64,000 nucleotides of DNA from Nemertoderma westbladi (taxonomy: Eukaryota > Animalia > Xenacoelomorpha): contig JAUCBJ010000267.1 of NCBI GenBank assembly GCA_032718475.1, positions 45,664 to 109,663 on the forward strand, in the 5' to 3' direction. The notes beneath the pieces were generated by a model that saw nothing but the letters and a program-made list of their open reading frames with translations, ran no database searches and was not told the DNA's origin. This document shows, one piece after another, positions 13,474 through 48,406 of the stretch. Positions within the stretch are counted from its first letter, which is position 1. Each line of letters opens with the position of its first letter. The position numbers were made by a program, and so were the translations under genes.

Positions 13474-13554
13474 CGGGTAACCTCCCTCGTTATATCTAAG
13501 GAATTGGTGAGCTGGACATCGCGTTAATATCGGTTCCGGATGTTGCTCGTCTAG

Positions 13555-23904: not shown

Positions 23905-23914
23905 CACGTATCAC
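23905..23914 (-). promoter_or_regulatory. Element A primer-binding-site position (GTGATACGTG), complementary to its own LTR rather than TGG-type
   Basis: Immediately follows the 5' LTR on the minus strand. Exact reverse complement of the minus-strand LTR segment CACGTATCAC (24998-25007). Confidence 0.75.
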
Positions 23915-26100
23915 TGATAAACAACCGCGACCTCTATACTAACAGCAGAACTGTTGAACAGACCAATACCCGTTAATATCCTTCTGCCAACCTAATAAGT
24001 TCTCGTCTAACCAATAAGACACAAAGACTGCTCTACTGTTAAGTAAAGGGGCTCAGGAGCGTGATATTACTAAATTGTAAGGGTTGCTAAATACAAAACC
24101 GCTACTTACCGTTAGATGGCGCTAATCTGCCGTCCGCTAATATATTTACTAATTTTACACAACCAGACAACTCCTGCAAAATCGCTTGTTCCTTTCTCTA
24201 CCGATTGCTCAATAGAGAGCTAACTGTTCGAATCTATGAGCCACGCGGGAATAACCAAAACAATAAACCCGAGTCGGCTCCCTAAGCTTACTTAAGACGA
24301 GTGCGAGAGGCCTTGCACTCAGAGTATTCTTACGCCTAATTCTATCACTTATTAAAGCACGCTATTACCTACGTCTTTCTAATCGCGAATACTGGGGTTT
24401 CTCTAACGTAATGTGTGAATGCGAGAATATTTAAATATCAAAAATGGTACAGTAATTGTCTCTCGTGGATAGTACCACTCTGGGTCTAAAATTGCCTGCA
24501 GCTGGCTTTAGGCCAGCAAATCACTAGCGTTTCGTGCGTACCGAATAGTGCGTTCTAGCTGATTGCCCGCTAATGCGAATAACCGCTTAGCGTGAATAGT
24601 TTACAGTACTCTAATTATTACTTTAGCTACTCTCCGCTATGCTGCGTACTAATTCTTAATTTTACTAATCAATTACAGTCACAAATATTTAACAGCGTAC
24701 TAATTACTAAGAGTTCCAGAATACGTAATTCTAATTTATCACGCAACAGGTTTCGCTAGTAATAGCCTAAATTGCCGTATTACTTTGACCTAATCAGTAA
24801 CTAATTGTTGTAACTAAGAAATAGAAATCAATCAAAGAGAAAAGAGCGCCTACCTAAACATTCACAATCATAGGCACACTTCAGTAACACACCAATCAGC
24901 ATCAGCAATCACAGTTCGCAATTATGCAGTTAACTACTGTATAGCCCACAATTATGCGACTCACTATTCGTACTACACGCTCAACGTTCGAAACGTTGTG
25001 ATACGTGCAGGCCTCTCCCGGGTACATATAGGACTCCTAACTAACCTGATTCCCGCCCCCCTAATACTAAATAGAGACGAAACCTGGATCATCAGCCCCC
25101 TAATTGCCGTACCGGCGATTGGTCTGCGTACCACAGCGTTAACTTCCCGACCGCAACGGTGACCCCACGCCAGCGTTGCTCGCTTTGAATCCTCCGCTCT
25201 CCCTTAGTCGCCCAACCCCCCGATGTGCCCACCGCCCGCTGGCGCCTTAGCCCTCCATTACGCTAATAGCTACCGTAGCGGCGCATGCAAATCACAAAGT
25301 CTGACAGTCTCAGGAATCCCTTGGGATTATTGCGCAGAAAGGAATCACATAGAACCATCAATCAAAGGTAGAAATCATAGTTCGATTGTAATTTGCAGTA
25401 ATCGAAGGAATTATTGAGAAACACAAGCAAAGTAATCGCACTAGCAAATCATTCCAAGAAATTAATCAAATTAGCAAATTGCAGAAAATACGATATCCTA
25501 ATACAAATTAGAGACAGCTCAGCAAGTAAATTGTAACAGGGGTGTGTCATGTGAGTGAGAGATTGATGATAGGCTCTACCGGCACACCGCCAATTTATAG
25601 GTGATCCGGGTGGGATGATGCAATAGGGTGACTCAATCGCTCTCCTATTGGCTCTCCAGTCCATGCTAGCATTAGACCAACCTGGAAGCAGTTAATCCAA
25701 TAAGGAGGCAGGATTGTAGCCCTATGCCCTCAAATAATTACCATATATGGTAATGGATCACGTCTCTGGCTGCTGAATGGCCAGGACGGCGTCCCTATAT
25801 GCTAGCCCTATCAAACTAATATCAGCAAGCACAAAATCCAGGGTCCGAGTAAACTCGCTACCCTGGAACTATCTACATATATCCTAATACAAAATTACGT
25901 AGGTAGGGCTACATACTATACAAAATGAATGGATGCAAATATATGGGCGTTTTAACTTCCTTACCTAAATGTCACCACACTGCGCCTTATCTAAATAATT
26001 ATACTGCACAACGGACTAATATTACGTACAGTATAACGGACTAATACTGCATACTGCATAATGGACTAATACTGTGGATACAGCGCCATATACCGTAACA
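23915..26100 (-). repeat. Element A 5' LTR (2186 bp)
   Basis: Minus strand reads TGTTACGG...GTTTATCA. Direct repeat of 9302-11479. Confidence 0.97.
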
Positions 26101-29100
26101 GGGATGTTGGCGATCGGGTTTCATTGACATACTGTAATGACAGGGTCGGGGATGTTGGCGATCAGGTTTCATTGACATACTGTAGTGACAGGCTCGGGGA
26201 TGTTGGCGACCAGGTTTCATTGACATACTGTAGTGACAGGGTCGGGGATGTTGGCAATCAGGTTTCATTGACTTACTGTAATGACAGGGTCGGGGATGTT
26301 GGCGATCAGGTTTCATTGACATACTGTAGTGACAGGGTCGGGGATGTTGGCGATCAGGTTTCATTGACATACTGTAGTGACAGGGTCGGGATGTTGGCGA
26401 TCAGGTTTCATTGACATGTAGTGCAGTGACAGGGTCGGGGATGTTGGCGATCAGGTTTCATTGACATACTGTAGTGACAGGGTCGGGGATGTTGGCGATC
26501 AGGTTTCATTGACATACTGTAATGACAAGGTCGGGGATGTTGGCGATCACCTTTCATTGACATGCTGTAGTGACAGGGTCGGGGATGTTGGCGATCAGGT
26601 TTCATTGACATGTAGTGCAGTGACAGGGTCGGGAATGTTGGCGATCAGGTTTCATTGACATACTGTAGTGACGGTCGGGGATGTTGGCGATCAGCTTTCA
26701 TTGACATACTGTAGTGACTGGGTCGGGGATGATGGCGATCAGGTTTCATTGACATACTGTAGTGACAGGGTCGGGGATGTTGGCAATCAGGTTTCATTGA
26801 CATACTGTAGTGACAGGGTCGGGATGTTGGCGATCAGGTTTCATTGACATGTATTGCAGTGACAGGGTCGGGGATGTTCGCGATCAGGTTTCATTGACAT
26901 ACTGTAGTGACAGGGTCGGGGATGTTGGCGATCAGGTTGCATTGACATACTGTAATGACAAGGTCGGGGATGTTGGCGATCACCTTTCATTGACATGCTG
27001 TAGTGACAGGGTCGGGGATGTTGGCGATCAGGTTTCATTGACATGTAGTGCAGTGACAGGGTGGGGATGTTGGCGATCAGGTTTCATTGACATACTGTAG
27101 TGACGGTCGGGGATGTTGGCGATCAGGTTTCATTGACATACTGTAGTGACTGGGTCGGGGATGTTGACGATCAGGTTTCATTGACATACTGTAGTGACAG
27201 GGTCGGGTATGTTGGCGATCAGGTTTCATTGACATACTGTAGTGACAGGGTCGGTGATGTTGGCGATCAGGTTTCATTGACATACTGTATTGACAGGGTC
27301 GGGGATGTTGGCGATCAGGTTTCATTGAGATACTGTAGTGTAGTGACAGGGTCGGGGATGTTGGCGATCAGGTTTCATTGACATACTGTAGTATAGTGAC
27401 AGGGTCGGGGATGTTGGCGATCAGGTTTCATTGACATACTGTAGTGACAGGGTCGGGGATGTTGGCGATCAGGTTTCATTGACATACTGTAGTGACAGGG
27501 TCGGGGTTGTTGGCGATCAGGTTTCATTGACATAGTGCAGTGACAGGGTCGGGGATGTTGGCGACCAGGTTTCATTGACATACTGTAGTGACAGGGTCGG
27601 GGATGTCGGCGATCAGGTTTCATTGACATATGTGGTGACAGGGTCGGGGATGTTGGCGATCAGGTTTTATTGACATACTGTAGTGCAGTGTGACAGGGTC
27701 GGGGATGTTGGCGGCCAGGTTTTATTGACTACTGTAGTGCAGTGCGACAGGGTCGGGGATGTTGGCGATCAGGTTTCATTGACATACTGTAGTGACAGGG
27801 TCGGGGATGTTGGCGATCAGGTTTTATTGACATACTGTAGTGACAGGGTCGGGGATGTTGGCGATCGGATTTCATTGACATACTGTAGTTGACAGGGTCG
27901 GGGATGTTGGCGATCAGGTTTCATTGACATACTGTAGTGACAGGGTCGGGGATGTTGGCGATCAGGTTTCATTGACATACTGTAGTGACAGGGTCGGGGA
28001 TGTTGGCGATCAGGTTTCATTGACATACTGTAGTGACAGGGTCGGGGATGTTGGTGATCGGGTTTCATTGACATACTGTAGTTGACAAGGTCGGGGATGT
28101 TGGCGATTAGGTTTCATTGACATACTGTAGTGACAGGGTCGGGGATGTTGGCGATCAGGTTTCATTGACATACTGTAGTGACAGGGTCGGGGATGTTGGC
28201 GATCAGGTTTCATTGACATACTGTAGTGACAGGGTCGGGGATGTTGGCGATCAGGTTTCATTGACATACTGTAGTGACAGGGTCGGGGATGTTGGCGATC
28301 AGGTTTCATTGACATACTGTAGTGACAGGGTCGGGGATGTTGGCGATCAGGTTTCATTGACATACTGTAGTGACAGGGTCGGGGATGTTGGCGATCGGGT
28401 TTCATTGACATACTGTAGTTGACAGGGTCGGGGATGTTGGCGATTAGGTTTCATTGACATACTGTAGTGACAGGGTCGGGGATGTTGGCGATCACCTTTC
28501 ATTGACATACTGTAGCGACAGGGTCGGGGATGTTGGCGATCGGGTTTCATTGACATACTGTAGTTGACAGGGTCGGGGATGTTGGCGATTAGGTTTCATT
28601 GACATACTGTAGTGACAGGGTCGGGGATGTTGGCGATCAGGTTTCATTGACTACTGTAGTGCAGTGACAGGGTCGGGGATGTTGGCGATCAGGTTTCATT
28701 GACATACTGTAGTGACAGGGTCGGGGATGTTGGCGATCAGGTTTCATTGACTACTGTAGTGCAGTGACAGGGTCGGGGATGTTGGCGATTAGGTTTCATT
28801 GACATACAGTAGTGACAGGGTCGGGGATGTTGGCGATCAGGTTTCATTGACTACTGTAGTGCAGTGACAGGGTCGGGGATGTTGGCGATCAGGTTTCATT
28901 GACATACTGTAGTGACAGGGTCGGGGATGTTGGCGATCAGGTTTCATTGACTACTGTAGTGCAGTGACAGGGTCGGGGATGTTGGCGATCAGGTTTCATT
29001 GACATACTGTAGCGACAGTCGGGGATATTGGCGATCAGTTTTCATTGACATACTGTAGTGACAGGGTCGGGGATGTTTGCGATCAGGTTTCATTGACTAC

Positions 29101-30488
29101 TGTAGTGCAGTGACAGGGTCGGGGATGTTGGCAATCAGGTTTCATTTACTACTGTAGTGCAGTGACAGGGTCGGGGATGTTGGTGACCAGGTTTCATTGA
29201 CATACTGTAGTGACAGGGTCGGGGATGTTGGCGATCAGGTTTCATTGACATACTGTAGTGACAGGGTCGGGGATGTTGGCGATCAGGTTTTATTGACTTA
29301 CTGTAGTGACAGGGTCGGGGATGTTGGCGATCAGGTTTCATTGACATACTGTAGTGACAGGGTCGGGGATGTTGGCGATCGGGTTTCATTGACATACTGT
29401 AATGACAGGGTCGGGGATGTTGGCGATCAGGTTTCATTGACATACTGTAGTGACAGGCTCGGGGATGTTGGCGACCAGGTTTCATTGACATACTGTAGTG
29501 ACAGGGTCGGGGATGTTGGCAATCAGGTTTCATTGACTTACTGTAGTGACAGGGTCGGGGATGTTGGCGATCAGGTTTCATTGACATACTGTAGTGACAG
29601 GGTCGGGGATGTTGGCGATCAGGTTTCATTGACATACTGTAGTGACAGGGTCGGGATGTTGGCGATCAGGTTTCATTGACATGTAGTGCAGTGACAGGGT
29701 CGGGGATGTTGGCGATCAGGTTTCATTGACATACTGTAGTGACAGGGTCGGGGATGTTGGCGATCAGGTTTCATTGACATACTGTAATGACAAGGTCGGG
29801 GATGTTGGCGATCACCTTTCATTGACATGCTGTAGTGACAGGGTCGGGGATGTTGGCGATCAGGTTTCATTGACATGTAGTGCAGTGACAGGGTCGGGAA
29901 TGTTGGCGATCAGGTTTCATTGACATACTGTAGTGATGGTCGGGGATGTTGGCGATCAGGTTTCATTGACATACTGTAGTGACTGGGTCGGGGATGATGG
30001 CGATCAGGTTTCATTGACATACTGTAGTGACAGGGTCGGGGATGTTGGCGATCAGGTTTCATTGAGATACTGTAGTGTAGTGACAGTGTCGGGGATGTTG
30101 GCGATCAGGTTTCATTGACATACTGTAGTGTAGTGACAGGGTCGGGGATGTTGGCGATCAGGTTTCATTGACATACTGTAGTGACAGGGTCGGGGATGTT
30201 GGCGATCAGGTTTCATTGACATACTGTAGTGACAGGGTCGGGGATGTTGGCGATCAGGTTTCATTGACATACTGTAGTGACAGGGTCGGGGATGTTGGCG
30301 ATCAGGTTTCATTGACATACTGTAGTGACAGGGTCGGGGATGTTGCCGATCGGGTTTCATTGACATACTGTAGTTGACAGGGTCGGGGATGTTGGCGATT
30401 AGGTTTCATTGACATACTGTAGTGACAGGGTCGGGGATGTTGGCGATCAGGTTTCATTGACATACTGTAGTGACAGGGTCGGGGATGT
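26101..30488. repeat. 48-bp tandem satellite, block 2
   Basis: Same monomer. It resumes in register after the GGGAT TSD. Confidence 0.98.
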
Positions 30489-30536
30489 TGTAAAAGCTTT
30501 TGCGTAATTAGCCGGTTATTTTCCCCGTAAAGTACT

Positions 30537-31722
30537 TGTAAAAGCTTTTGCGTCATTAACCGGTTATTTTCCCTTAAAGTACTCTGTAGTTGGTTTGCCA
30601 GGCATAAAAAGGCCGTGTCCTTGCTGTACTGGTGTTTTAGAGGACATAAAAGTCATTTCTTATGTATTTGTACTGTATTTGTACTTTAGAGGACATAATC
30701 CACAATCTCGTGACGCGATAAGCTAGATACTCTTGAAAACAGTGTCGCTACCATGACGATGGCTAACAGCTGATATTGCCACGTCGACGTTTCTTTGTTT
30801 CTTTGTTCTCTCGTTGTTCGGTTGACCAATCAGAGCGTTTGTTGTCTCTGTGTTGGAGGTGTATACAGAGGCTCAGTAGTTCAGTGTTATGTTTTTGCCC
30901 AGAGCCTAAGAACCGGCTTTTGGCACCTCCGTGTTTTCAGTTTTTAGTCTTACACTAGTAGGCTTAATTATAAGGACATATATCCGTTATCATAACATAA
31001 CTAAACATAACATACCATACCTAATCAAACAACCTGTGCATACTTTTATATTGTTATACTGCTATTTACTGTCAGTTCTTCATAATATGGTTGATGAATT
31101 ATTATATTTGGAATAACGATAAATAACCCCGAAAACCCAATATTCTTGATATACCGAAGGTAAGAGAGAAAGGTTACATATAACGATTGTGACTTATGTT
31201 AAAGTGGTTTAAAGTGAATCTAATGTTATTTGATAGACCCTACATGATTCGGTCCGTGTTCCTTTTATATGTGACTAAAATCAGTGAAGATCGGCAGATC
31301 AGTGTGCAGTATTGTGCAGCATTGTGTATGAGTGAGACTGATAACGAAGCATTTCCTAAAGAATGCGCCATATATGTGAATTGTAACTAAGCCATATCGT
31401 TGTGAGTAGTTTAAGTCATAACTCTGTTTATATAGATAGAGCGCCACGTCCTAAAGGAACTGTTAATATTTCCCGAAGGTGAATAATATTGTCAGAGATT
31501 ATATAATACTGTCAGTCGAATAATACATTAGGCTTACATAGCAATAAGATTAAGCCGTCGAACCCAATCTCCCGGGTATATCCAGCGGGTGAATGATCGC
31601 GCACAGATTGGTTTCGACTAGTGTAGTGAATCAAATACTTGTCATAGGCTAAAAGTAATTTATTATCTAGAAGACATCCTAATTTGGCGGGTTAAACTGC
31701 CAAAGGTCTGAAAGCGCGAACA
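30537..31722 (+). repeat. Element B 5' LTR (1186 bp)
   Basis: TGTAAAAGC...GCGCGAACA, repeated at 38334-39519 with about 3 visible substitutions. Confidence 0.96.
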
Positions 31723-31733
31723 ATAACGGATAT
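31723..31733 (+). promoter_or_regulatory. Element B primer-binding-site position (ATAACGGATAT), complementary to its own LTR
   Basis: Exact reverse complement of LTR segment ATATCCGTTAT at 30980-30990. Confidence 0.8.
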
Positions 31734-32074
31734 TTAGTCTGTATTGCAGTGTAGGCATTAAATACAGTTTAATATTGTTCTGGTAAGAACAATAACGGAT
31801 ATAGCTTCTGTATTGCAGTAGGCAATAAAGCTGAAGTACCGGCAACCGGTACCCAGTAGGCCTGACTACCTAACCACCCGGACCGGTACATACAGCAGTA
31901 CAGGTACAGCAGTATTATTCGATTTTGATAATTATATACCGGTAGGCCTTAATAATTAATCAGGGACTGCAGCCCTGGTTTTTTATTGAGATTTTTACTT
32001 ATTTCTGTCAAGTTTTATTTGTTTGTAGGCCAGTATTGAACAGAAGGCGTGTAAGTCTGATCAGATTGTACAGA

Positions 32075-32640
32075 CAATTTGTAGGCTGAGCTGTTGTCTG
32101 ATTGCTGTTAAGTCCGAACGGATTGCAGTGTGTGTAGAGCCTCTGTCCGATAAAGAACGGTTAGGAAGTAGGGGCAGCCAAAGCTGTAAGGTAAACCCCC
32201 AACTAAAGAATAAGTCGTACTACTGGGTTAGAACGCATACTACCTAATCATTTCGGAGTCTGCATGTCCTGTAGTTTATTTAGGCTTGAGAGTAGTCTGC
32301 CATCGTTTAGTCTGTACTTTGTTTGTGTAGTCTGTACAGGTAGCGTATAATATTTATTTAGATAATTTGTAGGCTGGATAGTTGTCTGGCTGTTATTAGG
32401 TCTGAACGGATTGCAGTGTGTGTAGAGCCTGTCCGATAAAGAACGGTTAGGAAGTAGGGGCAGCCAAAGCTGTAAGGTAAACCCCCATCTAAAGAATAAG
32501 TCGTACTACTGGGTTAGAACGCATACTACCTAATCATTTCGGAGTCTGCATGTCCTGTAGTTTATTTAGGCTTGATAGTAGTCTGTCAGTATTTGGTCTG
32601 CATTTTGTTTGAGTGGTTTGTACGCGTAGCGTAATATTTA
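32075..32640 (+). repeat. About 290-bp tandem duplication in the 5' leader of element B
   Basis: Two copies begin AATTTGTAGGCTG at about 32075 and 32363. The same duplication is present in C at about 40925-41500. Confidence 0.8.
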
Positions 32641-33953
32641 TTATTCAGAGTTTATGCGATTATTTGCCACATTCATTCCCCAAGTTTGTTCCTACAGTAA
32701 TTGTGTTTGTTATACATACCGCTATAGTTAAATTAACCCCGGTACTACACGGGCTGCTTGGCGTAGGTAAAGACTGGTGATTTTGTGCACCGGTCACTCC
32801 AGCAGATGCCGTGGTTCTTTTAACTGTTCAAGTATATTTAACTACTGATTATATGTTGTACAAGTACTCGTACCTAATTTAGGGTTTAGTGTACAGTGCT
32901 TTCCGAAAGTAATTAGTGTAGGCATTATATTTGTGTTGTAAAGTGGTTGATAGGCACGTTCGATTAGCTCTATTAACTTCTAGGTAGGGACACTCCGTGA
33001 TACATAACGTAGTACCTATATCGATACGGCTATAGGTCGTCAGGCGGTGGTATTTTCCTATCTGGACAACGCAGTGTATTTACTACTACGTATTATTTTC
33101 AAATAACCGCAGTACCCTGTCCGTTGTAATAACCAGATTTCTAACCCTTTGTTAGGCTGGTTTGTAGACTTCTTGTAAAATTACCCTGAAAATTTGTATT
33201 TTGTGTTTTTGTAAATTTTTGTGTTTATTTAGAGATTGTAATCTCACCCGAATTGTACGTAATTTGTAGTATTAAGTAACTTAGGTAAATTAGAATTATT
33301 TGTTTTAGTGTCCTATAAGTAACACTTCACTGAAAGCGCACCGCTTTGTGTAGTGATTACTCCCCAGAAATAATAACATTTATTTCAAACATTGACAAAA
33401 CCCATTAAACGGATATATATATATTATAAATCAACTCAAACGATTTATAAATAGTAGGCCTGCCATATAACAATTAGGTCTCAATATCAGTTGGACTACT
33501 GCTTAAATAACGGTAATAAAGTAAGTTAAAGTAACCAAGTAACCTTAAAATTCAGAAATTCAATTATTTAAAATAATTGATATACAGGTATCCACGATAG
33601 GCCTATTATATATTTATATTTGTGCTGAAATCATACCGGTATTCTGTAATTAATTCTAGTTAATAATTATACTTATATATCCTATAAGTGTAAACTGTAT
33701 ACCGGTATCCACGATAGGCCTATTATATATTTATATATATTTGTACTAAAATTATATACCGGTTTCTGTGAAAAACCTAGTCTGTAATAATACTTATATA
33801 TACTATAAGCATACCGGTATTCTAATATTATATATATCACGCTACACTGAGTAGCAGTATCGGTAATTAATTACTAGGCTAGCAGTTAATACTGAATTAC
33901 TAGACTTGCTTAGACTGTAATATAGCAGTAGACATTCAACTGTGTAAACAAAC

Positions 33954-36887
33954 ATGTCTGATACTAAGCATAACCTGTCAGACAGTTTATTAGATGTAAC
34001 TATCTGCGACTCAGATAGAGGTGTAGAACCGTCTAGTCCTAAGTTCAGTTCACCTCCCACTGTGAGGAAGGTCATCCCTCCAGTAGTAATAACAGAACCT
34101 AGGCTGGTCCAACATCGTAGGTCTATCATAGGCACTCGAGCCCAGGTCAAGCGGGACCAAGAAGCAGCGGAACAGCAACAACCCGCGAGCCAAGAACTTA
34201 TTTCTCAGCGGCCCAACAGCTCCAGTAGTGAGGATACTGTAGAGCTGACACCCGAGCGCGGAGCAAAGATGACGGATGCGGTTTATTCGGATCCCCTTCT
34301 CATCCTTCCTGCAGCCGTACTCACTAGGTTATTGATCGCGGTGGAAGAACACCAGATCGATTGGGCGAGAAGTAAGCGCTCAACTAAAGATAGTTATGAG
34401 GGATACACAAGGGAAGAACTGAAGTCTATGGTCGAGTCGCAATGGAACTTCCCCGGACCCGGACTCCCGTTTGATTTATCAGAAGCGGCCTGGGAAGACA
34501 TACACCGGATGGGAGTAGCCAAGGAAACCATCGATCCAGCTGTGTGGAAGAGGTCCGCAGCCGGATACGCACAGGGATTCTTCAGCTCTATGGAGCGAGT
34601 AAAAGAACAACTGTTTCAACAACCTCATGGACCTCAAGAGCAGGGACAACTGCTTTATCAAGTTAGAGAAAGAATTCTGCGAATCAGGCTAATATTATCA
34701 GCCTTTGAAGAGGCTTCTAAAAGAAGACAAGACACGTCGTTGCAAGTTGCCGTAAAGACTTGGTTTCAACGGGTGAGTCGCCAGGTTCAAGGAACAGCTC
34801 AGTGGAAAGCTCAGCTGGAGGAGCGGCGCTCAACCCATGGAGAATCAACAGACGCTACTTTTTCCCAAGTGGAAAGTGAAGCGACGGCAGAGAAGCCGCA
34901 TAAGAGGGATGCCATTGACATCGATCTGTCAGACTATCAACGTTTTTTAGGTGATGACGAGTTGAGGAGAAGGTTAGAGGGGCTTAGCCCTAATAGTGAA
35001 GGAACCAAGCTTGTGCTGGATGCCATCGATGTGGAAATGAGAGCTGCGAACCAGGCTAAATTTGATGAACAACTCCGCATCACACGAGTCCAAGAAGAAC
35101 AAGTAAAGAAAAAACGTATAGAAGACAGAAAGGCAGCAGCAGTAGCCGCAGCAGTGGCAGCTGCAGAAGTAGAAAGAAAAGCGGCAGTGGCAGAGGCAGC
35201 GGCAGAGGCAAAAGCGGCAGCGGCAGAGGCAAAAGCGGCAGAAGCAGAAAGAAAGGCGACAGTGGCAGCGGCCGAAGCGGAAAGAAAAGCAGCAGAGGCA
35301 GTGGCAGAAGCAGAACGGAGAGCGGCTGAAGAAACCACCCAATTAGAATTGGAAAACATTCAGGAGAATCAAGACTGCATAAATAAACAGTTAACAGCTA
35401 GTAATATGCAGATGATGAATCGATCTACTCCCAAAAGACAGGGATATACATCATCTGAGGAAGGCGATACCACCGATACTGAAGGCAAAGGAAATAGATC
35501 TCGTCTAAGCAGACGTAAAAGAACATCCCACCGTCAGAAATTGCCTGATTTGCCTCCAGCTGTTAGAAGGCAACTAAATAACACCAACTTAGGTAGTACA
35601 GAACCCACAGACCAAATAATTAAAATAGAAAGACTCCCTACTATAGTAGATGAGCCTGAAATAATTAGGCCTGTTCTTGAAATCACCCCTTCGGTGATAG
35701 ACACACCTGTGCTCCCTGAAACTACCTCTAAATTCCCTCTGCACAGCACTAAGCTACCTGTGCCCAGTAGAACAGCCCATGAGACAGTTCAGGTCCTGGA
35801 CCCCGAGCGAGATATTCATGATTTGTCGCCCGTTGCCCCTCGTCCGCCCGCTACAACGTTGGCGACTCCCGCTTCGGCGGTCGAATGGGTGGACGAGAGA
35901 CGGCGGGGGATGGATCTCCTGCTCGGGCAGATGCAGGAGACTGTTCAGCAATTCAAGGGCACAGTAAGGGAAAGTAGACTAGAGTTGCAAGAAGTGCAGC
36001 AAAGTATCGCGCTAGAACGCGATAAATTAGTGAACACACAAAAGGGTATACCACCACCCCCTGTAACAATGTGTCAACCCGTTAGGTCTGAAGTATCCCA
36101 TGCGCAAGGTGTGGAGCCTACACGCATCTATACTGCTAGCGAAGTAGAAACTCCTATAGTAAACCCTATTAAGGGTAATTATAAACCTGTTGATAATGAT
36201 ATCTCATCTAGACTTGATAATAATCCGAGAAACTTATATACCGATAATTCTCTATTCAATAATACGATGGCTCAAGAAAGTTTTACACGCCAAATGGCTA
36301 GAACTGAAGCCCGACAAGCGGTAAAGGTTGGAGAGATCGTCAAGTTCAATGGAGATGAGATGAAATGGTTACCTTTTAATGAATATTACAAAGATAACAT
36401 ACAGAACTCCGTGTTATCTAACGGAGAAAAGCTTAGATTCCTCATCGAGTGCTTGGAAGGATCTCCCAAGTTAATGGCGTTAAAGTTTATTGGACATCCA
36501 GATGGATTAAGACAAGTTTGGGATACAATAAACATCAGGTATGGTAATAGGACTAACATAGCTAGGTATTTGTATGCAAAATTAATGGCGCCCCGAAAGT
36601 TTCTTAGCAGCGGGATTATAGAGTTTTCCGACGAAATTCAGGAGATCTGTAGACAGCTAGATTGGTTAGGTAAGTCTCATGAATACCAGAATTCTATGGT
36701 TGTAGGAGCCTTAGCATCAACTCTGCCAAAGGGTGGAGTAGGTACACGCTGGGACAAGACAGTGTTATATATGATGGAACAACAACGACGAGACCCTACC
36801 ATGGCTGATCTCATGTCATTCTTGGATGGCGAAGTGAAATTACAGCTCATAAAGCAGTCCAGAGAGAAGACACCGGAAAACAATTAA
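33954..36887 (+). CDS. gag: Element B gag (977 aa), truncated by a deletion before the zinc knuckles
   Basis: Highly similar to the N-terminal part of 43715-48406, with BEL gag core KFNGDEMKWLPF...EKLRFL. A junction at about 36884 skips sequence present in C. Confidence 0.9.
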   Translation: MSDTKHNLSDSLLDVTICDSDRGVEPSSPKFSSPPTVRKVIPPVVITEPRLVQHRRSIIGTRAQVKRDQEAAEQQQPASQELISQRPNSSSSEDTVELTPERGAKMTDAVYSDPLLILPAAVLTRLLIAVEEHQIDWARSKRSTKDSYEGYTREELKSMVESQWNFPGPGLPFDLSEAAWEDIHRMGVAKETIDPAVWKRSAAGYAQGFFSSMERVKEQLFQQPHGPQEQGQLLYQVRERILRIRLILSAFEEASKRRQDTSLQVAVKTWFQRVSRQVQGTAQWKAQLEERRSTHGESTDATFSQVESEATAEKPHKRDAIDIDLSDYQRFLGDDELRRRLEGLSPNSEGTKLVLDAIDVEMRAANQAKFDEQLRITRVQEEQVKKKRIEDRKAAAVAAAVAAAEVERKAAVAEAAAEAKAAAAEAKAAEAERKATVAAAEAERKAAEAVAEAERRAAEETTQLELENIQENQDCINKQLTASNMQMMNRSTPKRQGYTSSEEGDTTDTEGKGNRSRLSRRKRTSHRQKLPDLPPAVRRQLNNTNLGSTEPTDQIIKIERLPTIVDEPEIIRPVLEITPSVIDTPVLPETTSKFPLHSTKLPVPSRTAHETVQVLDPERDIHDLSPVAPRPPATTLATPASAVEWVDERRRGMDLLLGQMQETVQQFKGTVRESRLELQEVQQSIALERDKLVNTQKGIPPPPVTMCQPVRSEVSHAQGVEPTRIYTASEVETPIVNPIKGNYKPVDNDISSRLDNNPRNLYTDNSLFNNTMAQESFTRQMARTEARQAVKVGEIVKFNGDEMKWLPFNEYYKDNIQNSVLSNGEKLRFLIECLEGSPKLMALKFIGHPDGLRQVWDTINIRYGNRTNIARYLYAKLMAPRKFLSSGIIEFSDEIQEICRQLDWLGKSHEYQNSMVVGALASTLPKGGVGTRWDKTVLYMMEQQRRDPTMADLMSFLDGEVKLQLIKQSREKTPENN

Positions 36888-37154
36888 TTATTATGTCAAT
36901 AAAACGCCTAAAGACCAGGTAAGTAAATTCAAGTCTCTAACCAATGACAGGAGAGAACAGGTAAGAAAAACTCCTCCTACGTCTCCCAAGAGAATTCAGG
37001 TGAGAAAGCCCGAGGAAAGAACGAACGTACACCACACAGCACATGTTAAAGTAAGTAACATCAAGCCCAAATGTGTGCTGTGCGATGGGCCCCACCGTTT
37101 AAATGCGTGTGATAAATTCCTGAGGAAATCACTAAAGGATAGACGTGAAGTCAT

Positions 37155-37862
37155 GTGGGAAACATAGAAACATATCTCAATATTGCCAGTCAACAAAATA
37201 TAGAAACTCGATATCCTCAAGGTATACATCATGACCGCATGGTAGAACTCAAACGGATCGATTCCCCTATGATGTATCTTACCGCCGATCGACCGCTACC
37301 TGTTGTACCGAATAGCTTCGAACGGATGGAGGAATATTGTAAGCTGGAGAAAGATCACTCGCGTTTCCCCTACAAGACGTACGTTTTTGGGTATTATTGC
37401 GATGAATGCCCAAGACCCAACCAACAAACGGAAAGACGTAAACATCCGCGGAGACGTTGCTTTAAACACGGTTTTACTCGCTATACTTACGGGAGTTTCG
37501 AGCGAAACTTGTTCAATGTATCACCTACGCTCGTTCGACTCAGACGATCCTTAAATAAACCAATGATCAGAGTTTCGGAATACTCGATCAGAGCTCCTCA
37601 TTCCCTAATGAGACCTCAGACTCTTGATCCTATTAGTATGACGGATCCTCCCGAGCTGTACTCACTGCTCAAAGATCTGGTGTTGCCTGAACGATTGGTC
37701 GGTGGCACCCCAGTTGTGGGTTTCTTAGATATTAGCCCATCCTACCTAGCCGGATTGGGACGCGGACATTTAATATCGCCGTTTAACCCTTACCATCGTC
37801 CCGGCTTGACACAATATAACCTGTCACCAGAGTGGCGGAGAACGTTGTACCAAACGAGTTAA
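37155..37862 (+). CDS. Element B accessory ORF (5' end removed by the gag/accessory deletion junction near 37160), homologous to 13555-14043
   Basis: ETRYPQ...MMYLTADRPLPVVPNSFERMEEY...YYCDEC. A degenerate copy is present in C at about 50050-51150. Confidence 0.65.
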   Translation: MGNIETYLNIASQQNIETRYPQGIHHDRMVELKRIDSPMMYLTADRPLPVVPNSFERMEEYCKLEKDHSRFPYKTYVFGYYCDECPRPNQQTERRKHPRRRCFKHGFTRYTYGSFERNLFNVSPTLVRLRRSLNKPMIRVSEYSIRAPHSLMRPQTLDPISMTDPPELYSLLKDLVLPERLVGGTPVVGFLDISPSYLAGLGRGHLISPFNPYHRPGLTQYNLSPEWRRTLYQTS

Positions 37863-38333
37863 ACGCTATTCTACAAAGATCAGAAAGGAAACCTACGTTT
37901 GTTCAGATAAACGTAAGTTGTAACAGCAAGTCCAAGCGATAAACGAATTGTCTTTATCTCAGTTCGATTGTGAAATCCAGAATCTCTAAGAAGATATCGC
38001 ACTTAGACAACCCCATTCTCTGCGAGAGTTTTTGGATGAACGTATCCAGCTACGAGCGGAGGAAAATCAGCTCGAGGAGAAGCATATCGAAACGGCGGAT
38101 ACCCCTACCATAATCCTACACCTTCTGATGCAATCATATTGCACCCTTCACCCAGGATTTATAGCCCTCCTAGTAAAGTGGCTCCCCCCAAAGAGAAAAG
38201 GACTCTTGCTAGCCTCAAAAAACTGCGTAAACGCCGTCTGCGTAAGAAAGACTAACTGTTTAGAGTATTTTTATATTTTAGAAACTGTGATTTGTTATAT
38301 TTTATAGACTTAAATCCCATTTTCTGGGAGCGG

Positions 38334-39519
38334 TGTAAAAGCTTTTGCGTCATTAACCAGTTATTTTCCCTTAAAGTACTCTGTAGTTGGTTTGCCAGGC
38401 ATAAAAAGGCCGTGTCCTTGCTGTACTGGTGTTTTAGAGGACATAAAAGTCATTTCTTATGTATTTGTACTGTATTTGTACTTTAGAGGACATAATCCAC
38501 AATCTCGTGACGCGATAAGCTAGATACTCTTGAAAACAGTGTCGCTACCATGACAATGGCTAACAGCTGATATTGCCACGTCGACGTTTCTTTGTTTCTT
38601 TGTTCTCTCGTTGTTCGGTTGACCAATCAGAGCGTTTGTTGTCTCTGTGTTGGAGGTGTATACAGAGGCTCAGTAGTTCAGTGTTATGTTTTTGCCCAGA
38701 GCCTAAGAACCGGCTTTTGGCACCTCCGTGTTTTCAGTTTTTAGTCTTACACTAGTAGGCTTAATTATAAGGACATATATCCGTTATCATAACATAACTA
38801 AACATAACATACCATACCTAATCAAACAACCTGTGCATACTTTTATATTGTTATACTGCTATTTACTGTCAGTTCTTCATAATATGGTTGATGAATTATT
38901 ATATTTGGAATAACGATAAATAACCCCGAAAACCCAATATTCTTGATATACCGAAGGTAAGAGAGAAAGGTTACATATAACGATTGTGACTTATGTTAAA
39001 GTGGTTTGAAGTGAATCTAATGTTATTTGATAGACCCTACATGATTCGGTCCGTGTTCCTTTTATATGTGACTAAAATCAGTGAAGATCGGCAGATCAGT
39101 GTGCAGTATTGTGCAGCATTGTGTATGAGTGAGACTGATAACGAAGCATTTCCTAAAGAATGCGCCATATATGTGAATTGTAACTAAGCCATATCGTTGT
39201 GAGTAGTTTAAGTCATAACTCTGTTTATATAGATAGAGCGCCACGTCCTAAAGGAACTGTTAATATTTCCCGAAGGTGAATAATATTGTCAGAGATTATA
39301 TAATACTGTCAGTCGAATAATACATTAGGCTTACATAGCAATAAGATTAAGCCGTCGAACCCAATCTCCCGGGTATATCCAGCGGGTGAATGATCGCGCA
39401 CAGATTGGTTTCGACTAGTGTAGTGAATCAAATACTTGTCATAGGCTAAAAGTAATTTATTATCTAGAAGACATCCTAATTTGGCGGGTTAAACTGCCAA
39501 AGGTCTGAAAGCGCGAACA
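38334..39519 (+). repeat. Element B 3' LTR
   Basis: Preceded by PPT-like GGGAGCGG and followed by TSD GTACT. Confidence 0.96.
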
Positions 39520-39524
39520 GTACT

Positions 39525-40621
39525 CTGTAGTTGGTTTACTGGGCATAAAAAGGCCGTGTCCTTACTGTACTGGTGTTTTAGAGGACATAAAAGCCATTTC
39601 TTCTGTATTTGTACTTTAGAGGACATAATCCGCAATTTCGGGACGCAATAAGCTCGATACTCTTGAAAACAGTGTCGCTACCATGACGACGGCTAACAGC
39701 TGATATTGCCACGTCGACATTTCTTTGTTTCTTTGTTCTCTCGTTGTTCGGTCGACCAATCAGAGCGTTTTTGTCTCTGTGTTGGAGGTGGATACAGAAA
39801 CTCAGGAATTCAGTGTTATGTTTTTGCCCAGAGCCTAAGAACACCGGCTTTTGGCACCTCCGTGTTTCAGTCTTTAGTCTTACATTAGTAGGCTTAATTA
39901 TAGAACGTATATCTGTTATCGAGTTACCTTATCAATGCTTACTAAACATATCATGCATATCTTACTTAACATTACTGCTTTTGCTGTCGGTTATTCATTA
40001 TATTTGTTGATGGAAGATTATATTTGGAATACTGATCAATAGTCAGACACCCAACCTTCTTGATATACTAAAGGTTAGAGAGACCGGTTACAGATAAACG
40101 ATTGCGACCTATGTTAAGTGGTTTGAAGTGAATCAAATGCTATTTTATAGGCCCTACATGTATTGTCTGTTATTCTCTTTGTATGTGACTAAAATTAGTG
40201 AAGGTCGGCAGATTGGTGTGCAGCATTGTGTATGATTGTGACTGATAACAAAGCATCTCCTAAAGAATGCGCCATATACGTGAATCTATAGCCTTTTCGT
40301 TGTGTCTAGTTTAAGTCATAACTCTGTTTACATATTTAGAGCGCCACGTCCTAAAGGAACTGTTAATATTTCCCGAAAGTGAATAATATTTGTCAGAGAT
40401 TATATATTACGATCAGTCGAATAATACGGTAGGCTTACACCATCAATCATTAAGTTCCGAATTCAGTCTCCCGGGTATATCCAGCGGGTGAATGATTGCG
40501 CATAGACTGGCTTCGGCTAATGTAGTGTATCAAATACTCGTCATAGGCTAAAGACTATATATCATCCAAAAGACATCCTAATTTGCAGGTTAAACTGTCA
40601 AAGGTCTTAAAAGCGCAAACA
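39525..40621 (+). repeat. Element C 5' LTR, distal part (the first 48 bp lie at 30489-30536)
   Basis: Joining 30489-30536 to 39525 onward reproduces the sequence starting at 51576. It ends AAGCGCAAACA, like B's AAGCGCGAACA. Confidence 0.92.
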
Positions 40622-40632
40622 ATAACAGATAT
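40622..40632 (+). promoter_or_regulatory. Element C primer-binding-site position (ATAACAGATAT), complementary to its own LTR
   Basis: Exact reverse complement of ATATCTGTTAT at 39909-39919, with a compensatory change relative to element B. Confidence 0.8.
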
Positions 40633-42851: not shown

Positions 42852-43714
42852 GTAGTAACCTGTCTGTTGTAATAACCAGATATTCTAACCCTTTGTTAGG
42901 CTGGTTAGTAGACTTCTTGTAAAATTACCCTAAAAATTCGTATTTGTGTATTTGTAATTAAATTTTTGTGTTTATTTAGAGATTGTAATCTCAACCAGAA
43001 TTGTACGTAATTTGTAGTATTAAGTAACTTAGTTAAATTAGAATTATTTGTTTTAGTGTCCAACAAGTAGCACTCCACTGAGAGCGCACAGCTTCTGTGT
43101 AGTGACTCCCCCAGAAATAATAACATTTATTTCAAACATTGACAAAAACCCATTTCCACGGGTATATATATATATTATAAATCAACTCAAACGATTTATA
43201 AATAGTAGGCCTGCCATACAACAATTAGGTCTCAATATCAGTTGGACTACTGCTTAAATAACGGTAATAAAGTAAGTTAAAGTAATCAAGTAACCCTTAA
43301 AATTCAGAAATTCAATTATTCTAAAATAATTGATATACCGGTATTTACAATAGGCTTATTATCTTTATTTTATAAATATAGGCTGAAATTATACCGGTAT
43401 TCTGTAATTAATTCTAGTCTGTAATTATACTTATATATATACATTATAAGTGTAAGCTGTATACCGGTATTCAAGATAGGCCTATTATATATATAAACTT
43501 AGGCTGAAATCATACCGGTATTCTGTAATTAATTCTAGTTACTAATAATACTTATATATACCATAAGCATACCGGTATTCTAATATTATATATATATTAC
43601 GCTACACTGAGTAGCAGTATCGGTAATTAATTACTAGGCTAGCAGTTAATACTGAATTACTAGACTTGCTTTAACTGTATTTATAGCCGTAGGCATTCAA
43701 CTGTGTAAACAAAC

Positions 43715-46700
43715 ATGTCTGACACAACCCAATCACTGTCGGATAGTCTCCTAGATAGTGTTAGAATGACTGTTAGACAGTGTCTTAAAAGGATCAGTGA
43801 CCCAGATCCAAGTATAGAACATCCTAGATCCAAGTCTAAGTCCCCTCCTACTGTAAGAAAGGCCATCCCTACAGTAGTAGTGTCAGACCCTAGACTAGTA
43901 GAACATCGTAGGTCTATCATAGGCACTCGAGCTCAGGTCAAGCGGGACCAAGAAGCAGCGGAACAGCAACAACCCGCGAGCCAAGAACTTATTTCTCAGC
44001 GGCCCGACAGCTCCAGTAGCGAGGATACTGTAGAGCTGACACCCGAGCGCGGAGCAAGGATGACGGATGCGGTTTATTCGGATCCCCTTCTCATCCTTCC
44101 TGCAGCCGTACTCACTAGGTTATTGATTGCGGTGGAAGAACACCAGATCGATTGGGCGAGAAGTAAGCGATCAACTAAAGATAGTTATGCGGGATACACA
44201 AGGGAAGAACTGAAGTCTATGGTCGAGTCGCAATGGAACTTCCCCGGACCCGGACTCCCGTTTGATTTATCAGAAGCTGCCTGGGAAGACATACACCGGA
44301 TGGGAGTAGCCAAGGAAACCATCGATCCAGCTGTGTGGAAGAGGTCCACAGCCGGATACGCACAGGGATTCTTAAGCTCTATGGAGCGAGTAAAAGAACA
44401 ACTGTTTCAACAACCTCAAGGACCTCAAGAGCAGGGACAACTGCTTTATCAAGTTAGAGAAAGAATTCTGCGAATTAGGATAATCTTATCGGCCTTTGAG
44501 GAGGCTTCTAAAAGAAGACAAGACACGTCGTTGCAAGTTGCCATAAAGACTTGGTTTCAACGGGTGAGTCTCCAAGTTCAAGGAACGGCTCAGTGGAAAG
44601 CTCAGCTGGAGGAGCGCTCAACCCATGGAGAATCAACAGACGCTACTTTTTCCCAAGTGGAAAGTGAAGCGACGGCAGAGAACCCGCATAAGAGGGATGC
44701 CATTGATATCTATCTGTCAGACTATCAACGTTTCTTAGGTGATGAAGAGTTGAGGAGAAGGTTGGATGGACTTAACCCTAATAGTGAAGGAGCACAGCGT
44801 GTGCTTGACGCCATCGACGTGGATAGGTTAGCGGCGAACCAAGCTAAATTCGATGAACAACTCCGCATCGCTAGAGACCAAGAAGAAAAGGTGAAGAAAA
44901 AACGCATAGAAGACAGAAAGAAAGCAGCAGTAGCAGCTGCAGAAGCCGAAAGGAAAGCAGCCGAAGAGGAAAGTAAAGCAGCCGAAATGGAAAGAAAAGC
45001 GGCAGCGGCAGAGGCAGAAGCGAAAAGAAAAGCGGCAGCGGCAGAGGCAGAAGCGAAAAGAAAAGCAGCCGAAATGGAAAGAAAAGCGGCAATGGCAGCG
45101 GCAGAAGCAGAGCGGATAGCGGCTGAAGAGATCGCCCAATTAGAATTGGAAAATATTCAGGAGAATCAAGACTGCATAAATAAACAGTTAACAGCTAGTA
45201 ATATGCAGATGATGAATCGATCTACTCCCAAAAGACAGGGATATACATCATCTGAGGAAGGCGATACCACCGATACTGAAGGCAAAGGAAATAGATCTCA
45301 CCTAAGCAGACGTAAAAGAACATCCCACCGTCAGAAATTGCCTGATTTGCCTCCAGCTGTTAGAAGGCAACTAAATAACACCAACTTAGGTAGTACAGAA
45401 CCCACAGACCAAATAATTACAATAGAGAGACTCCCTACTATAGTAGATGAGCCTGAAATAATTAGGCCTGTTCCCGAAGCCACCCTTTTGGTGGTAGAGA
45501 CACCTGTACTCCCTGAACCTACCTCTAAATTCCCTTTGCACAGTACCAAGCTACCTGTGCCCAGCAGAACAGCCCATGAGACAGTTCATGCCCTGGACTC
45601 CGAGCGTAATATTCATGATTTGTCGCCCGTTGTCCCTCGTCCGCCCGCTACAACGTTGGCGAATCCCGCTTCGGCGGTCGAATGGGTGGATGAGAGACGA
45701 CGGGGGATGGATCTCCTGCTCGGACAGATGCAGGAGACCGTTCAGCAATTCAAGGGCACAGTAAGGGAAAGTAGGCTAGAGTTGCAAGAAGTGCAGCAAA
45801 GTATCGCGCTAGAACGCGATAAATTAGTAAATACACAAAGGGGTATACCACCACCCCCTGTAACAATGTGTCAACCTGTTATGTCTGAAGTATCTCATGC
45901 GCAAGGTGTGGAGCCTACATGCATCTATACTGCTAGCGAAGTAGAAACTCCTATAGTGAACCCTATTAAGGGTAATTATAGACCTGTTGATAATGATATT
46001 CCCTATAGACCGGATCATAATCCGAGAAATTTATATACCGATAACTCGATATTAAATAACACGATGGCCCAAGAAAGTTTTACGCGTCAAATGGCTAGAA
46101 CCGAAGCCCGGCAAGCGGTAAAGGTGGGAGAGATCGTCAAGTTCAATGGAGATGAGATGAAATGGTTACCTTTTAATGAATATTACAAAGATAACATACA
46201 GAACTCTGTACTATCTAATGGAGAGAAACTTAGATTCCTCATCGAGTGCTTGGAAGGATCTCCCAAGTTAATGGCGTTAAAGTTTATTGGACATCCAGAC
46301 GGATTAAGACAAGTTTGGGATACACTAAACATCAGGTATGGTAATAGGAATAACATAGCTGGGTATTTGTATGCAAAGTTGGTAGCGCCCCGAAAGTTTA
46401 TTAGCAGCGGGATTATAGAGTTTTCCGATGAGATTCAGGAGATCTGCAGACAATTAGATTGGCTAGGTAAGTCTCATGAGTATCAGAGTGCTATGGTTAT
46501 TAGAGCAGTGGCTTCTACTTTACCGAAGGGTGGAGTAGGTACACGCTGGGATAAGAAAGTGTTATATATGATGGAACAACAACGACGAGACCCTACCATG
46601 GCTGATCTCATGTCATTCTTAGATAGAGAAGTGAAATTACAGCTCCTAAGGCAGTCCAGAGAGAAGACACTGGAAAACAAGGTAAGTGAGAAACCCGTTT

Positions 46701-48406
46701 CTAGGAGAAGGGTAACACCAGTGTGTTATACAGACGACGGCGAAAGCCAGACTTCTCAAGGAGAGGATAGCGGGAAAGACACTGAAAGATCTTATTATGT
46801 CAATAAAACGCCTAAAGACCAGGTAAGTAAATTCAAGTCTCGAACCAATGACAGGAGAGAACAGGTAAGAAAAACTCCTCCTACGTCTCCCAAGAGAATT
46901 CAGGTGAGAAAGCCCGAGGAAAGAACGAACGTGCACCACACAGCACATGTTAAAGTAAGTAACATCAAGCCCAAATGTGTGCTGTGCGATGGGCCCCACC
47001 GTTTAAGTGCGTGTGATGAATTCCTGAAGAAATCACTAAAGGACAGACGTGAAGTCATGTGGGATAAGCGGTTGTGTTATAATTGCCTCAGACGAGGACA
47101 CCAACGGCGAACCTGTTACTCCGACGTAAGGTGTGCAAAGTGCGGCGCAAAACATCATATCTTGTTGCACACGGAATTCGAACGAAACAGCCCGAGTCAG
47201 GTAAGTGAGTCCGAACTACATGTCCAATTCAGTGATGTGAACGACACTGACCAATATTCTGAGATGGAAGGATTCTATACGGACGAATTCTCCGACGAAA
47301 ACGAATCCTGTTACCTAACAAATACCGCAGTGTATCGAGCACTTACGTATGAAAAAGACACCGACAGCGAGCCCCCCCTAACTACTTCTGACAGACAACC
47401 ATCTTGGAAAGCACCACCTTCCAATGTAGGAATCCGAGAATTTCCTGTAGTACAGGTAAGGGTCCACGGACCTAAAAGGAGTTATGTAGTGAACGCCCTC
47501 CTTGACTCCGGTAGTACAGGAACATTCATCGACAAAGAACTAGCCGAAGACATCTTTGCTGGACAACCCAAGTTCCGAACTGAGCTAAACATGTCAGGAA
47601 TTATGCAGGTTTGGAAATCTACAGTAATCGCAGATTATTATGTAGGTGCGTTGTCCACCCCCCAGGATGAACTAGGAGAACACAGCATAAGGTCAGTAAA
47701 AATGTTAGCGATAAAGAACTTCGCGACCAGCCAAGTGGAACCTTATAACTGGGATGAGGACGATTTCACCCAGCAGTTTGAAATACCTAGATTCAACACC
47801 GATTACCCTGGAGTCCAAATACTCATCGGTCAAAATGCGCATGAAGCGCTCGAGACATTGGAGAAACGGCCTGCTCAACCGCAACCTCTACAAGTTTATG
47901 CGGGAAGAACTAGAGTAGGTTGGTACTTTACTGGCCCTTCTCGTAGAACTCTTATGGAAAGATTACCAAAAGAACAGGTATATCAATTAAGTGAACGGGA
48001 AGTGGAGAGCAGTGAAGTTGACGACCCAACTGAGGGAACACCATACTCCTCAGATAATGACGACATCAACTCCAATGTAGATCAATGGAGACATTGCCCC
48101 GAGACGATCAATCTAGCCGACATCGCCTCCAGAGGAGCAACTCCTCAAGAACTTACAGATACTCCAGACTGGTTAGGTGAACCCGACTTCCTAAGTAAAG
48201 AAGATGAATGGCCTCCCCATCTTAACCCGGCGAAGATTAGACAGGCCAAGGGAGCGGAGAAAGTAACACAACCACTCAATCGCCCAGCTGGTCGTTTATG
48301 TTTACTGGAAAGAGACCGAAAACTGTCCGGAAACTATGGAAGGCAAGATACTCTTCCCACGACCACCTCCCTAATCCAACAAATATCTAGGGACTCCATA
48401 ACGTAA
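43715..48406 (+). CDS. gag-pol: Element C gag-protease ORF (1563 aa) fused in frame to RNase H and integrase C-terminal remnants; RT and IN core deleted
   Basis: Cys/His arrays CVLCDGPHRLSAC, CYNCLRRGHQRRTC and CAKCGAKHHILLH, then protease ALLDSGS. It continues directly into QWRHCPETINLADIASRG (RH end) and LNRPAGRLCLLE (IN end). No YxDD or DDE motifs. Confidence 0.9.
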   Translation: MSDTTQSLSDSLLDSVRMTVRQCLKRISDPDPSIEHPRSKSKSPPTVRKAIPTVVVSDPRLVEHRRSIIGTRAQVKRDQEAAEQQQPASQELISQRPDSSSSEDTVELTPERGARMTDAVYSDPLLILPAAVLTRLLIAVEEHQIDWARSKRSTKDSYAGYTREELKSMVESQWNFPGPGLPFDLSEAAWEDIHRMGVAKETIDPAVWKRSTAGYAQGFLSSMERVKEQLFQQPQGPQEQGQLLYQVRERILRIRIILSAFEEASKRRQDTSLQVAIKTWFQRVSLQVQGTAQWKAQLEERSTHGESTDATFSQVESEATAENPHKRDAIDIYLSDYQRFLGDEELRRRLDGLNPNSEGAQRVLDAIDVDRLAANQAKFDEQLRIARDQEEKVKKKRIEDRKKAAVAAAEAERKAAEEESKAAEMERKAAAAEAEAKRKAAAAEAEAKRKAAEMERKAAMAAAEAERIAAEEIAQLELENIQENQDCINKQLTASNMQMMNRSTPKRQGYTSSEEGDTTDTEGKGNRSHLSRRKRTSHRQKLPDLPPAVRRQLNNTNLGSTEPTDQIITIERLPTIVDEPEIIRPVPEATLLVVETPVLPEPTSKFPLHSTKLPVPSRTAHETVHALDSERNIHDLSPVVPRPPATTLANPASAVEWVDERRRGMDLLLGQMQETVQQFKGTVRESRLELQEVQQSIALERDKLVNTQRGIPPPPVTMCQPVMSEVSHAQGVEPTCIYTASEVETPIVNPIKGNYRPVDNDIPYRPDHNPRNLYTDNSILNNTMAQESFTRQMARTEARQAVKVGEIVKFNGDEMKWLPFNEYYKDNIQNSVLSNGEKLRFLIECLEGSPKLMALKFIGHPDGLRQVWDTLNIRYGNRNNIAGYLYAKLVAPRKFISSGIIEFSDEIQEICRQLDWLGKSHEYQSAMVIRAVASTLPKGGVGTRWDKKVLYMMEQQRRDPTMADLMSFLDREVKLQLLRQSREKTLENKVSEKPVSRRRVTPVCYTDDGESQTSQGEDSGKDTERSYYVNKTPKDQVSKFKSRTNDRREQVRKTPPTSPKRIQVRKPEERTNVHHTAHVKVSNIKPKCVLCDGPHRLSACDEFLKKSLKDRREVMWDKRLCYNCLRRGHQRRTCYSDVRCAKCGAKHHILLHTEFERNSPSQVSESELHVQFSDVNDTDQYSEMEGFYTDEFSDENESCYLTNTAVYRALTYEKDTDSEPPLTTSDRQPSWKAPPSNVGIREFPVVQVRVHGPKRSYVVNALLDSGSTGTFIDKELAEDIFAGQPKFRTELNMSGIMQVWKSTVIADYYVGALSTPQDELGEHSIRSVKMLAIKNFATSQVEPYNWDEDDFTQQFEIPRFNTDYPGVQILIGQNAHEALETLEKRPAQPQPLQVYAGRTRVGWYFTGPSRRTLMERLPKEQVYQLSEREVESSEVDDPTEGTPYSSDNDDINSNVDQWRHCPETINLADIASRGATPQELTDTPDWLGEPDFLSKEDEWPPHLNPAKIRQAKGAEKVTQPLNRPAGRLCLLERDRKLSGNYGRQDTLPTTTSLIQQISRDSIT

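Follow-up and report, generated by a model that had tools for sequence, protein, structure and literature searches.

The 64,000-nucleotide (nt) stretch of Nemertoderma westbladi DNA analysed here (the window) carries three BEL/Pao-type retrotransposons with long terminal repeats (LTRs), designated A, B and C, and these raise the question of how reverse transcription is primed in elements that have no tRNA site behind their LTR. [quoted passage not shown] Elements A, B and C are probably self-primed from a segment of their own LTR RNA, and they likely derive by intron loss from a widespread group whose primer is assembled by splicing. What can be read directly in the sequences is the complementarity between PBS and LTR, the lack of a TGG site, the match of the PBS to a splice junction in related elements and the precise loss of the intron in two related families.

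Primer-binding sites complementary to the elements' own LTRs

In element B, the predicted self-primer segment (30980–30990, plus strand, 11 nt) pairs with the PBS at 31723–31733 (plus strand), and in element C the segment at 39909–39919 (plus strand, 11 nt) pairs with the PBS at 40622–40632 (plus strand). Both duplexes are exact and begin at the first base after the CA that closes the LTR (offset 0). They differ at position 6, where the C-G pair of B is replaced by U-A in C (T in the segment and A in the PBS), just as a sequence-only reading of this DNA had proposed. The same reading had ascribed an identical geometry to element A; the offset is indeed 0, but the pairing extends over 10 nt, not 11 (segment 24998–25007 and PBS 23905–23914, both on the minus strand, with 23914–23905 facing 25007–24998). 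Behind none of the three LTRs does a TGG occur within the first 9 nt, and none of the three elements carries the 18-nt tRNA-type PBS of the ICTV description. A primer spanning a GT-AG junction, as described below for related elements, was rejected for A, B and C, the best junction-spanning PBS matches requiring 2–4 G-U pairs, so that only contiguous pairing is considered for them. The supplementary PBS table of PMC13524379, as far as its content was accessible, matched neither the window sites nor the TGG control terms, so the comparison carries no information on tRNA priming.

The exchange at position 6 had been put forward as the strongest evidence in the window for a self-priming BEL/Pao lineage. 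Taken alone, it is weak evidence: B and C are sister subfamilies (~82–83% identical) and so provide only one covarying site, which by our own estimate would arise by chance about once in 10–20 for one such site among 11. Moreover, if the primer is copied into the PBS during replication, a single mutation would give both sides of the swap. Element A, with ~23% identity to B/C in gag-protease, is the sole independent family in the window. The self-priming lineage is nevertheless supported, mostly by the splice-junction matches of its relatives. An origin of the B and C pairing by chance, or from a local inverted duplication that both inherited, followed by a coincidental double change, would be compatible with their close relationship and single covarying site, as well as with the 10-nt complements to the A LTR that are found at 26 of 12417 internal positions. 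We consider this explanation extremely improbable, given that the offset is 0 in two unrelated families and that dinucleotide shuffles of the LTR, 5000 for each element, produced an offset-0 complement 13 times for B, 5 times for C and never for A (10 nt), corresponding to rates of 0–0.3% each. The same geometry also recurs in many families outside the window, and the test of 16 loci reported below largely refutes a chance origin.

Both B and A contain a second copy of the LTR end and PBS, located 69 nt (B) and 101 nt (A) downstream of the first. The B copy (31787–31803, plus strand) pairs over 12 nt with 30979–30990; the A copy (23801–23818, minus strand, including a mimic of the LTR end) pairs with the segment over 13 nt through its PBS portion at 23801–23813. 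In both elements the second copy pairs further into the LTR segment, over 12 nt (B) and 13 nt (A) against 11 and 10 nt for the first, as if templated by a primer longer than the duplex.

Probable splice-junction primers in related elements

The reverse transcriptase (RT) encoded in the window has 171 homologues, and most of the 120 matches listed share the BEL/Pao Pfam set found in the window (DUF1759, Peptidase_A17, integrase zinc domain and DUF5641). The named homologues belong to corals, echinoderms, molluscs, ribbon worms, a hemichordate, a fluke and a fish; no relatives of the window elements were found among viral contigs. By RT alignment, 80 metagenome loci (named L0xx) were collected, and the 3' end of the LTR was set by the divergence of the two LTR copies in 17 of them, or 16 after L011, a duplicate of L012, was dropped. 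Contiguous complements of the PBS are mostly short in these relatives, yet they start right behind a pyrimidine tract and AG. The bases following the LTR were compared with exon-exon junctions in the LTR, any GT..AG pair being allowed, and 12 of the 16 loci displayed a perfect 10–15-nt complement of the PBS to the junction formed by removal of a GT-AG intron. In each of these 12 loci the best junction is that of a consensus intron, with the donor GTAAG in 11 loci and GTTCGT in one, together with a pyrimidine tract and YAG at the acceptor. For no locus did more than 2 of 200 shuffles attain a match as long as the observed one, and matches of at least 10 nt appeared in 11 of 240 swapped LTR/PBS pairs (some of them between families with a common PBS) and in 1 of 160 slid windows.

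Wider scans and inspection by eye sorted the 80 loci into 35 of the split type, L054, four of the contiguous type, one of the TGG type and 39 that received no assignment. A wider scan that required a purine-T start returned some chance contiguous matches (L029, L048, L059 and L060) and was used only to extend the list. Among the 31 elements listed, the first 10 nt of the PBS take 26 different forms, each matching its own LTR. Mismatched PBS/LTR pairs in other subfamilies, which the sequence-only reading would have counted against itself, come to one uncompensated case, L001, beside one further compensated pair of PBS and segment (L053/L057) in addition to B/C.

These data also bear on the possibility that the duplex acts as a switch of a structural or regulatory kind (in packaging, dimerisation or translation) while priming is carried out by a tRNA fragment or another host RNA. 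Such an arrangement would agree with the ICTV profile, which gives the family as tRNA-primed (PMC8742986), and has a parallel in the half-tRNA primers of copia lineages mentioned in the accessible text of PMC6317226. It is nonetheless highly unlikely in view of the 26 different PBS starts, each of which follows its own LTR, the location of the duplex exactly where a primer must sit, an offset that tracks the spacer of the polypurine tract (PPT; see below) and the absence of a 10-nt junction match from L013, the one TGG-type relative.

Precise intron loss and the link to the window

Two related families include members from which the intron has been removed exactly. L014, a sibling of L028, L032 and L034, is precisely without their 168-nt intron (L014 compared with L034), and L021, a sibling of L054, is precisely without its ~410-nt intron. 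In both cases the joined exons make up a contiguous complement of the PBS, the same arrangement as in A, B and C. L021 is accompanied by flank, U3 and a TATA box upstream and therefore reads as an integrated copy. Whether L014 is DNA- or RNA-derived, it would show removal at the predicted splice sites either way.

The phylogenetic distribution was examined on a quick RT tree that includes no named references for BEL/Pao clades (Sinbad, Suzu etc.). The split type runs through the whole of this tree, and the contiguous type is accounted for by five changes, of which strongly supported branches force at least four. Shuffling the labels on the tree revealed no clustering of the contiguous type, a result that fits scattered losses and proves nothing. 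The expectation that self-priming elements would form a clade was not borne out, as the trait occurs throughout the RT tree sampled and is not confined to a small clade; nor is it tied to an accessory open reading frame (ORF) with CxxC motifs, another suggestion of the sequence-only reading, since relatives with the trait pass from pol to the PPT within ~100–250 nt and have no such ORF.

Two sets of loci stand out on the same tree. L013 has a TGG-type, tRNA-like PBS (L013:843–865) and a 164-bp LTR and is nested among split-primer elements; within its own LTR there is also a weak junction that can form 7 nt of pairing with the first PBS bases. The TGG-type PBS could be the mark of a switch in primer type. 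L029 and L064, from unrelated branches, have self-complementary sites (11 and 12 nt, respectively) that are contiguous and free of an intron.

Signatures of a probable priming site

Pairing starts with purine-T in 15 of the 16 cases that were found without requiring it (the 12 junction loci, L029, A, B and C). The gap between the LTR end and the start of pairing (0–4 nt) tracks the gap between the PPT and the start of the LTR, both gaps being 0 in the window. With values taken by eye, the Spearman correlation is 0.82 (p 0.001) for 12 elements, B and C being counted once, and 0.65 (p 0.04) for the 10 loci alone, as expected if PBS offset and PPT spacer both mark the ends of the cDNA. Folding predicts the duplex in L014, L021 and L029, with pair probabilities of 0.67, 0.89 and 0.94. 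Promoter motifs suggest an internal position for the segment in the transcript, at a distance from the likely start of ~100 nt in B, C and L021 and ~570 nt in A. A segment located at a TATA-defined start was rejected for B, whose TATA-like word, 11 nt upstream, lies too near and is not the same in C, and for A, which has a clear TATA ~590 nt upstream.

In four runs, host contigs agree with B as far as 30989–30991 and diverge directly behind this point. The stretch right behind the paired segment (30992–31057 in B versus 39921–39975 in C) shows the lowest conservation anywhere in the B/C LTR and is variable among host contigs; this low conservation may be the mark of a template end after cleavage. 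No canonical splice joint was seen in the host contigs compared with the window. Downstream of the paired segment, the B/C LTR contains a candidate intron of ~78 nt (31160–31237 and 40074–40151, with the acceptor chosen by eye), the donor of which is GTAAGA in B and weaker in C, and the junction of which has no match to the PBS.

Predicted course of priming

In the proposed mechanism, transcription would start some way upstream of the segment, making the primer internal, unlike the first 11 nt used by Tf1. The 5' leader RNA would fold back onto the PBS, and the RNase H of the element would cleave immediately 3' of the duplex, so that the resulting primer would have AC or AU at its end. RT would then copy U5 and the remaining part of R and jump to the 3' end, and plus-strand synthesis would copy the primer into the new PBS, so that segment and PBS would stay in step. 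In the intron-bearing relatives, only the spliced 5' copy would be able to pair, and the unspliced 3' copy would pass the intron on; if the 3' copy were spliced as well, the progeny would be without the intron in both LTRs and would resemble A, B and C. Having no RT, B and C would need a helper element.

For the wider group, it seems likely that a large part of the BEL/Pao elements of marine animals use no tRNA primer and rely on an internal self-RNA primer, ancestrally assembled by the spliceosome from two LTR exons. Splicing would thereby license reverse transcription and hide the 3' copy of the primer, and repeated deletion of the intron would lead to contiguous self-primers such as those in the window.

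Element RNA might also prime in trans, as a separate short LTR transcript or the second genome copy within the particle (spliced in the intron-bearing relatives), on a template that remains unspliced. Inheritance of the intron would then not require one RNA to splice its 5' copy while keeping the 3' copy; short LTR transcripts are conceivable, as 9 of the 10 split relatives listed have a polyadenylation signal downstream of the acceptor, and fold-back is not predicted in the long LTRs of the window. We regard trans priming as unlikely, however, because cis fold-back is predicted in three of the four intron-less relatives, because the repeated precise loss of the intron shows that spliced RNA is itself reverse-transcribed, and because Tf1 acts in cis (PMC7175516, in the text available).

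Several observations weigh against self-priming in A, B and C by descent from a split-primer form. Four of the 16 loci have no junction match, namely L013 (TGG type), L029 (contiguous, 11 nt), L054 (PBS deleted) and L017 (unexplained), and the 39 of 80 loci without an assigned type include many in which the contig has no LTR or PBS; L001 retains one uncompensated mismatch between PBS and segment. Folding yields no duplex in A, B and C (0.00–0.16), where the partners are 730–1080 nt apart and whole-leader folding is unreliable, or in L064 (0.00). No convincing flanking helices of the Tf1 type, where three duplexes form a pretzel structure around the PBS, were found in A, B and C, and between the primer-adjacent region and the PBS flanks of B and C there is no Watson-Crick helix of at least 9, only short G-U-rich ones. 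AATAAA and ATTAAA are absent from the three window LTRs, whereas such a signal is present in 9 of the 10 split relatives listed. In two runs, a divergent host contig departs from B one base before the end of the segment. The window RT occupies a long unplaced branch (1.51) of the quick RT tree and no member of the A, B or C families with an intron was encountered, which is why descent from the split form is drawn by analogy. Finally, all steps beyond complementarity, including transcript start, cleavage and priming, are ones that we infer from sequence.

Organization of the elements and their surroundings

The window contains a satellite with a 48-bp unit (1–9301, 26101–30490 and 52214–54666) that is broken up by the LTR retrotransposons. 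Besides the BEL/Pao domains, the hallmarks of the superfamily include TG...CA LTRs, 5-bp target site duplications (TSDs) for A and B, and a PPT placed directly against the 3' LTR in all three elements. Element A has a total span of 16.8 kb and LTRs of 2.2 kb, all on the minus strand: the 5' LTR at 23915–26100 (2186 bp, with CCAAT at LTR position 450 and TATAAA at 502) and the 3' LTR at 9302–11479, with its 5-bp TSD inside the 48-bp satellite. Its gag-pol (14801–22757, minus strand) follows the BEL/Pao order of Gag (DUF1759), protease, RT, RNase H (Peptidase_A17) and integrase, with DUF5641, and includes the only RT in the window, which is interrupted by an in-frame stop.

Element B, on the plus strand, is nested within the 5' LTR of C, with a 5-bp TSD at 30532–30536 and 39520–39524. 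Its 5' LTR (30537–31722, 1186 bp, TG...CA) is 99.7% identical over the aligned part to its 3' LTR (38334–39519), which is adjoined by the PPT (38325–38333) with a spacer of 0. The gag ORF of B (DUF1759; 33948–36887) is truncated, and the element ends within gag, without RT. The C LTR, also on the plus strand, starts at 30489; its first 48 bp (30489–30536) were severed by the B insertion, and the remainder (39520–40621) begins with the second TSD copy. The gag-protease ORF of C (43709–48406, plus strand) continues into the RNase H end, RT being deleted, and the 3' LTR (51576–52209, plus strand), with the PPT directly upstream, is cut off by satellite. In the register of the 48-bp satellite, the A and C insertions are 3 bp apart (9297–9301, 26101–26105 and 30484–30488), B having entered the C LTR; two events are too few for a claim of targeted insertion.

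Accessory ORFs without a Pfam match lie between pol and the PPT at 11974–14115 (A), 37149–37862 (B) and 50483–51150 (C, frameshifted). The B ORF (plus strand) contains CxxC motifs and is weakly related to the ORF at 13555–14115 in A, the relation between the B/C ORF and the 186-aa ORF of A having an E value of 2e-4. ARAGORN detected no tRNA genes within the window. An AT-rich region at 54960–56300, without long ORFs and with scattered inverted-repeat-like motifs, is possibly a non-autonomous DNA element.

A candidate fourth element is located at 61080–64000, where a 599-bp stretch adjoins a 50-bp satellite; the inverted ends of this stretch are imperfect, matching by eye at 12 of 15 nt. Directly behind it, 12 nt (61679–61690) are the exact complement of 61448–61459, starting with GT; an ATTAAA lies behind the segment and an open 353-aa ORF runs from 62940. 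No Pfam match and no second LTR were detected for it in the window, and the ORF had no homologue in the searches. A region-wide scan found such a match in 1–10% of shuffles, and the element is a candidate only.

Comparison with known systems and significance

The window elements are similar to Belpaoviridae (PMC8742986) in the order Gag, protease, RT, RNase H and integrase, in the domains DUF1759, Peptidase_A17 and DUF5641, and in having TG...CA LTRs, a 5-bp TSD and a PPT. They differ from the family description by the lack of a tRNA site and, in the case of A, by LTRs of 2.2 kb and a span of 16.8 kb. Self-priming is established for the Tf1/sushi group and predicted for the plant elements TAR and Tcn1, according to the accessible parts of PMC4600332, PMC6317226, PMC10085805 and PMC7175516. 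As in the window elements, Tf1, Tf2, Tj1 and the Tf1/sushi group (Ty3/gypsy chromoviruses) have an 11-nt PBS right after the CA of the LTR that is complementary to their own LTR, and use no tRNA (PMC7175516, PMC4600332 and PMC10085805, in the portions available). However, the window elements carry BEL/Pao domains and gave no chromodomain match in Pfam, which makes them Tf1-like in their presumed working and not members of that group. The Tf1 segment comprises the mRNA's initial 11 bases and is released by an RNase H cut between bases 11 and 12 (PMC7175516, same portions), whereas the window segment is predicted to be internal; moreover, the segment is split by an intron in relatives of the window elements, and flanking helices like those of Tf1 are not found in A, B and C. 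Tf1 copies its PBS primer into the ends of the cDNA (PMC11042837, as far as accessible). TAR (Houba/Osr-1) copia and Tcn1 gypsy elements of plants resemble the window elements in that self-priming is predicted from PBS-LTR complementarity, TAR being outside Tf1/sushi. They belong to other superfamilies and hosts, and the accessible text mentions no intron-split primer (PMC6317226).

No report of self-priming or of a splice-made primer in BEL/Pao was found in the literature searched, as far as its text was accessible; subscription journals and Repbase Reports were outside the search and may already note self-complementary PBSs. PMC3118150 makes no mention of primer, tRNA, splicing or intron. 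Self-priming in a superfamily listed as tRNA-primed is, in our judgement, real with high probability and would constitute a new form of self-priming.

BEL/Pao is a main superfamily of animal LTR retrotransposons. If the proposed mechanism is true, it would add a further origin of self-priming to those of Tf1/sushi and plant TAR, and it would couple the onset of reverse transcription directly to RNA splicing. That PBS finders report no site in such elements would also be accounted for, and the elements may be beyond control by tRNA fragments. The window would then represent the end state of a cycle, and the families in which both forms occur allow the idea to be tested with nothing more than RNA and cDNA-end data.

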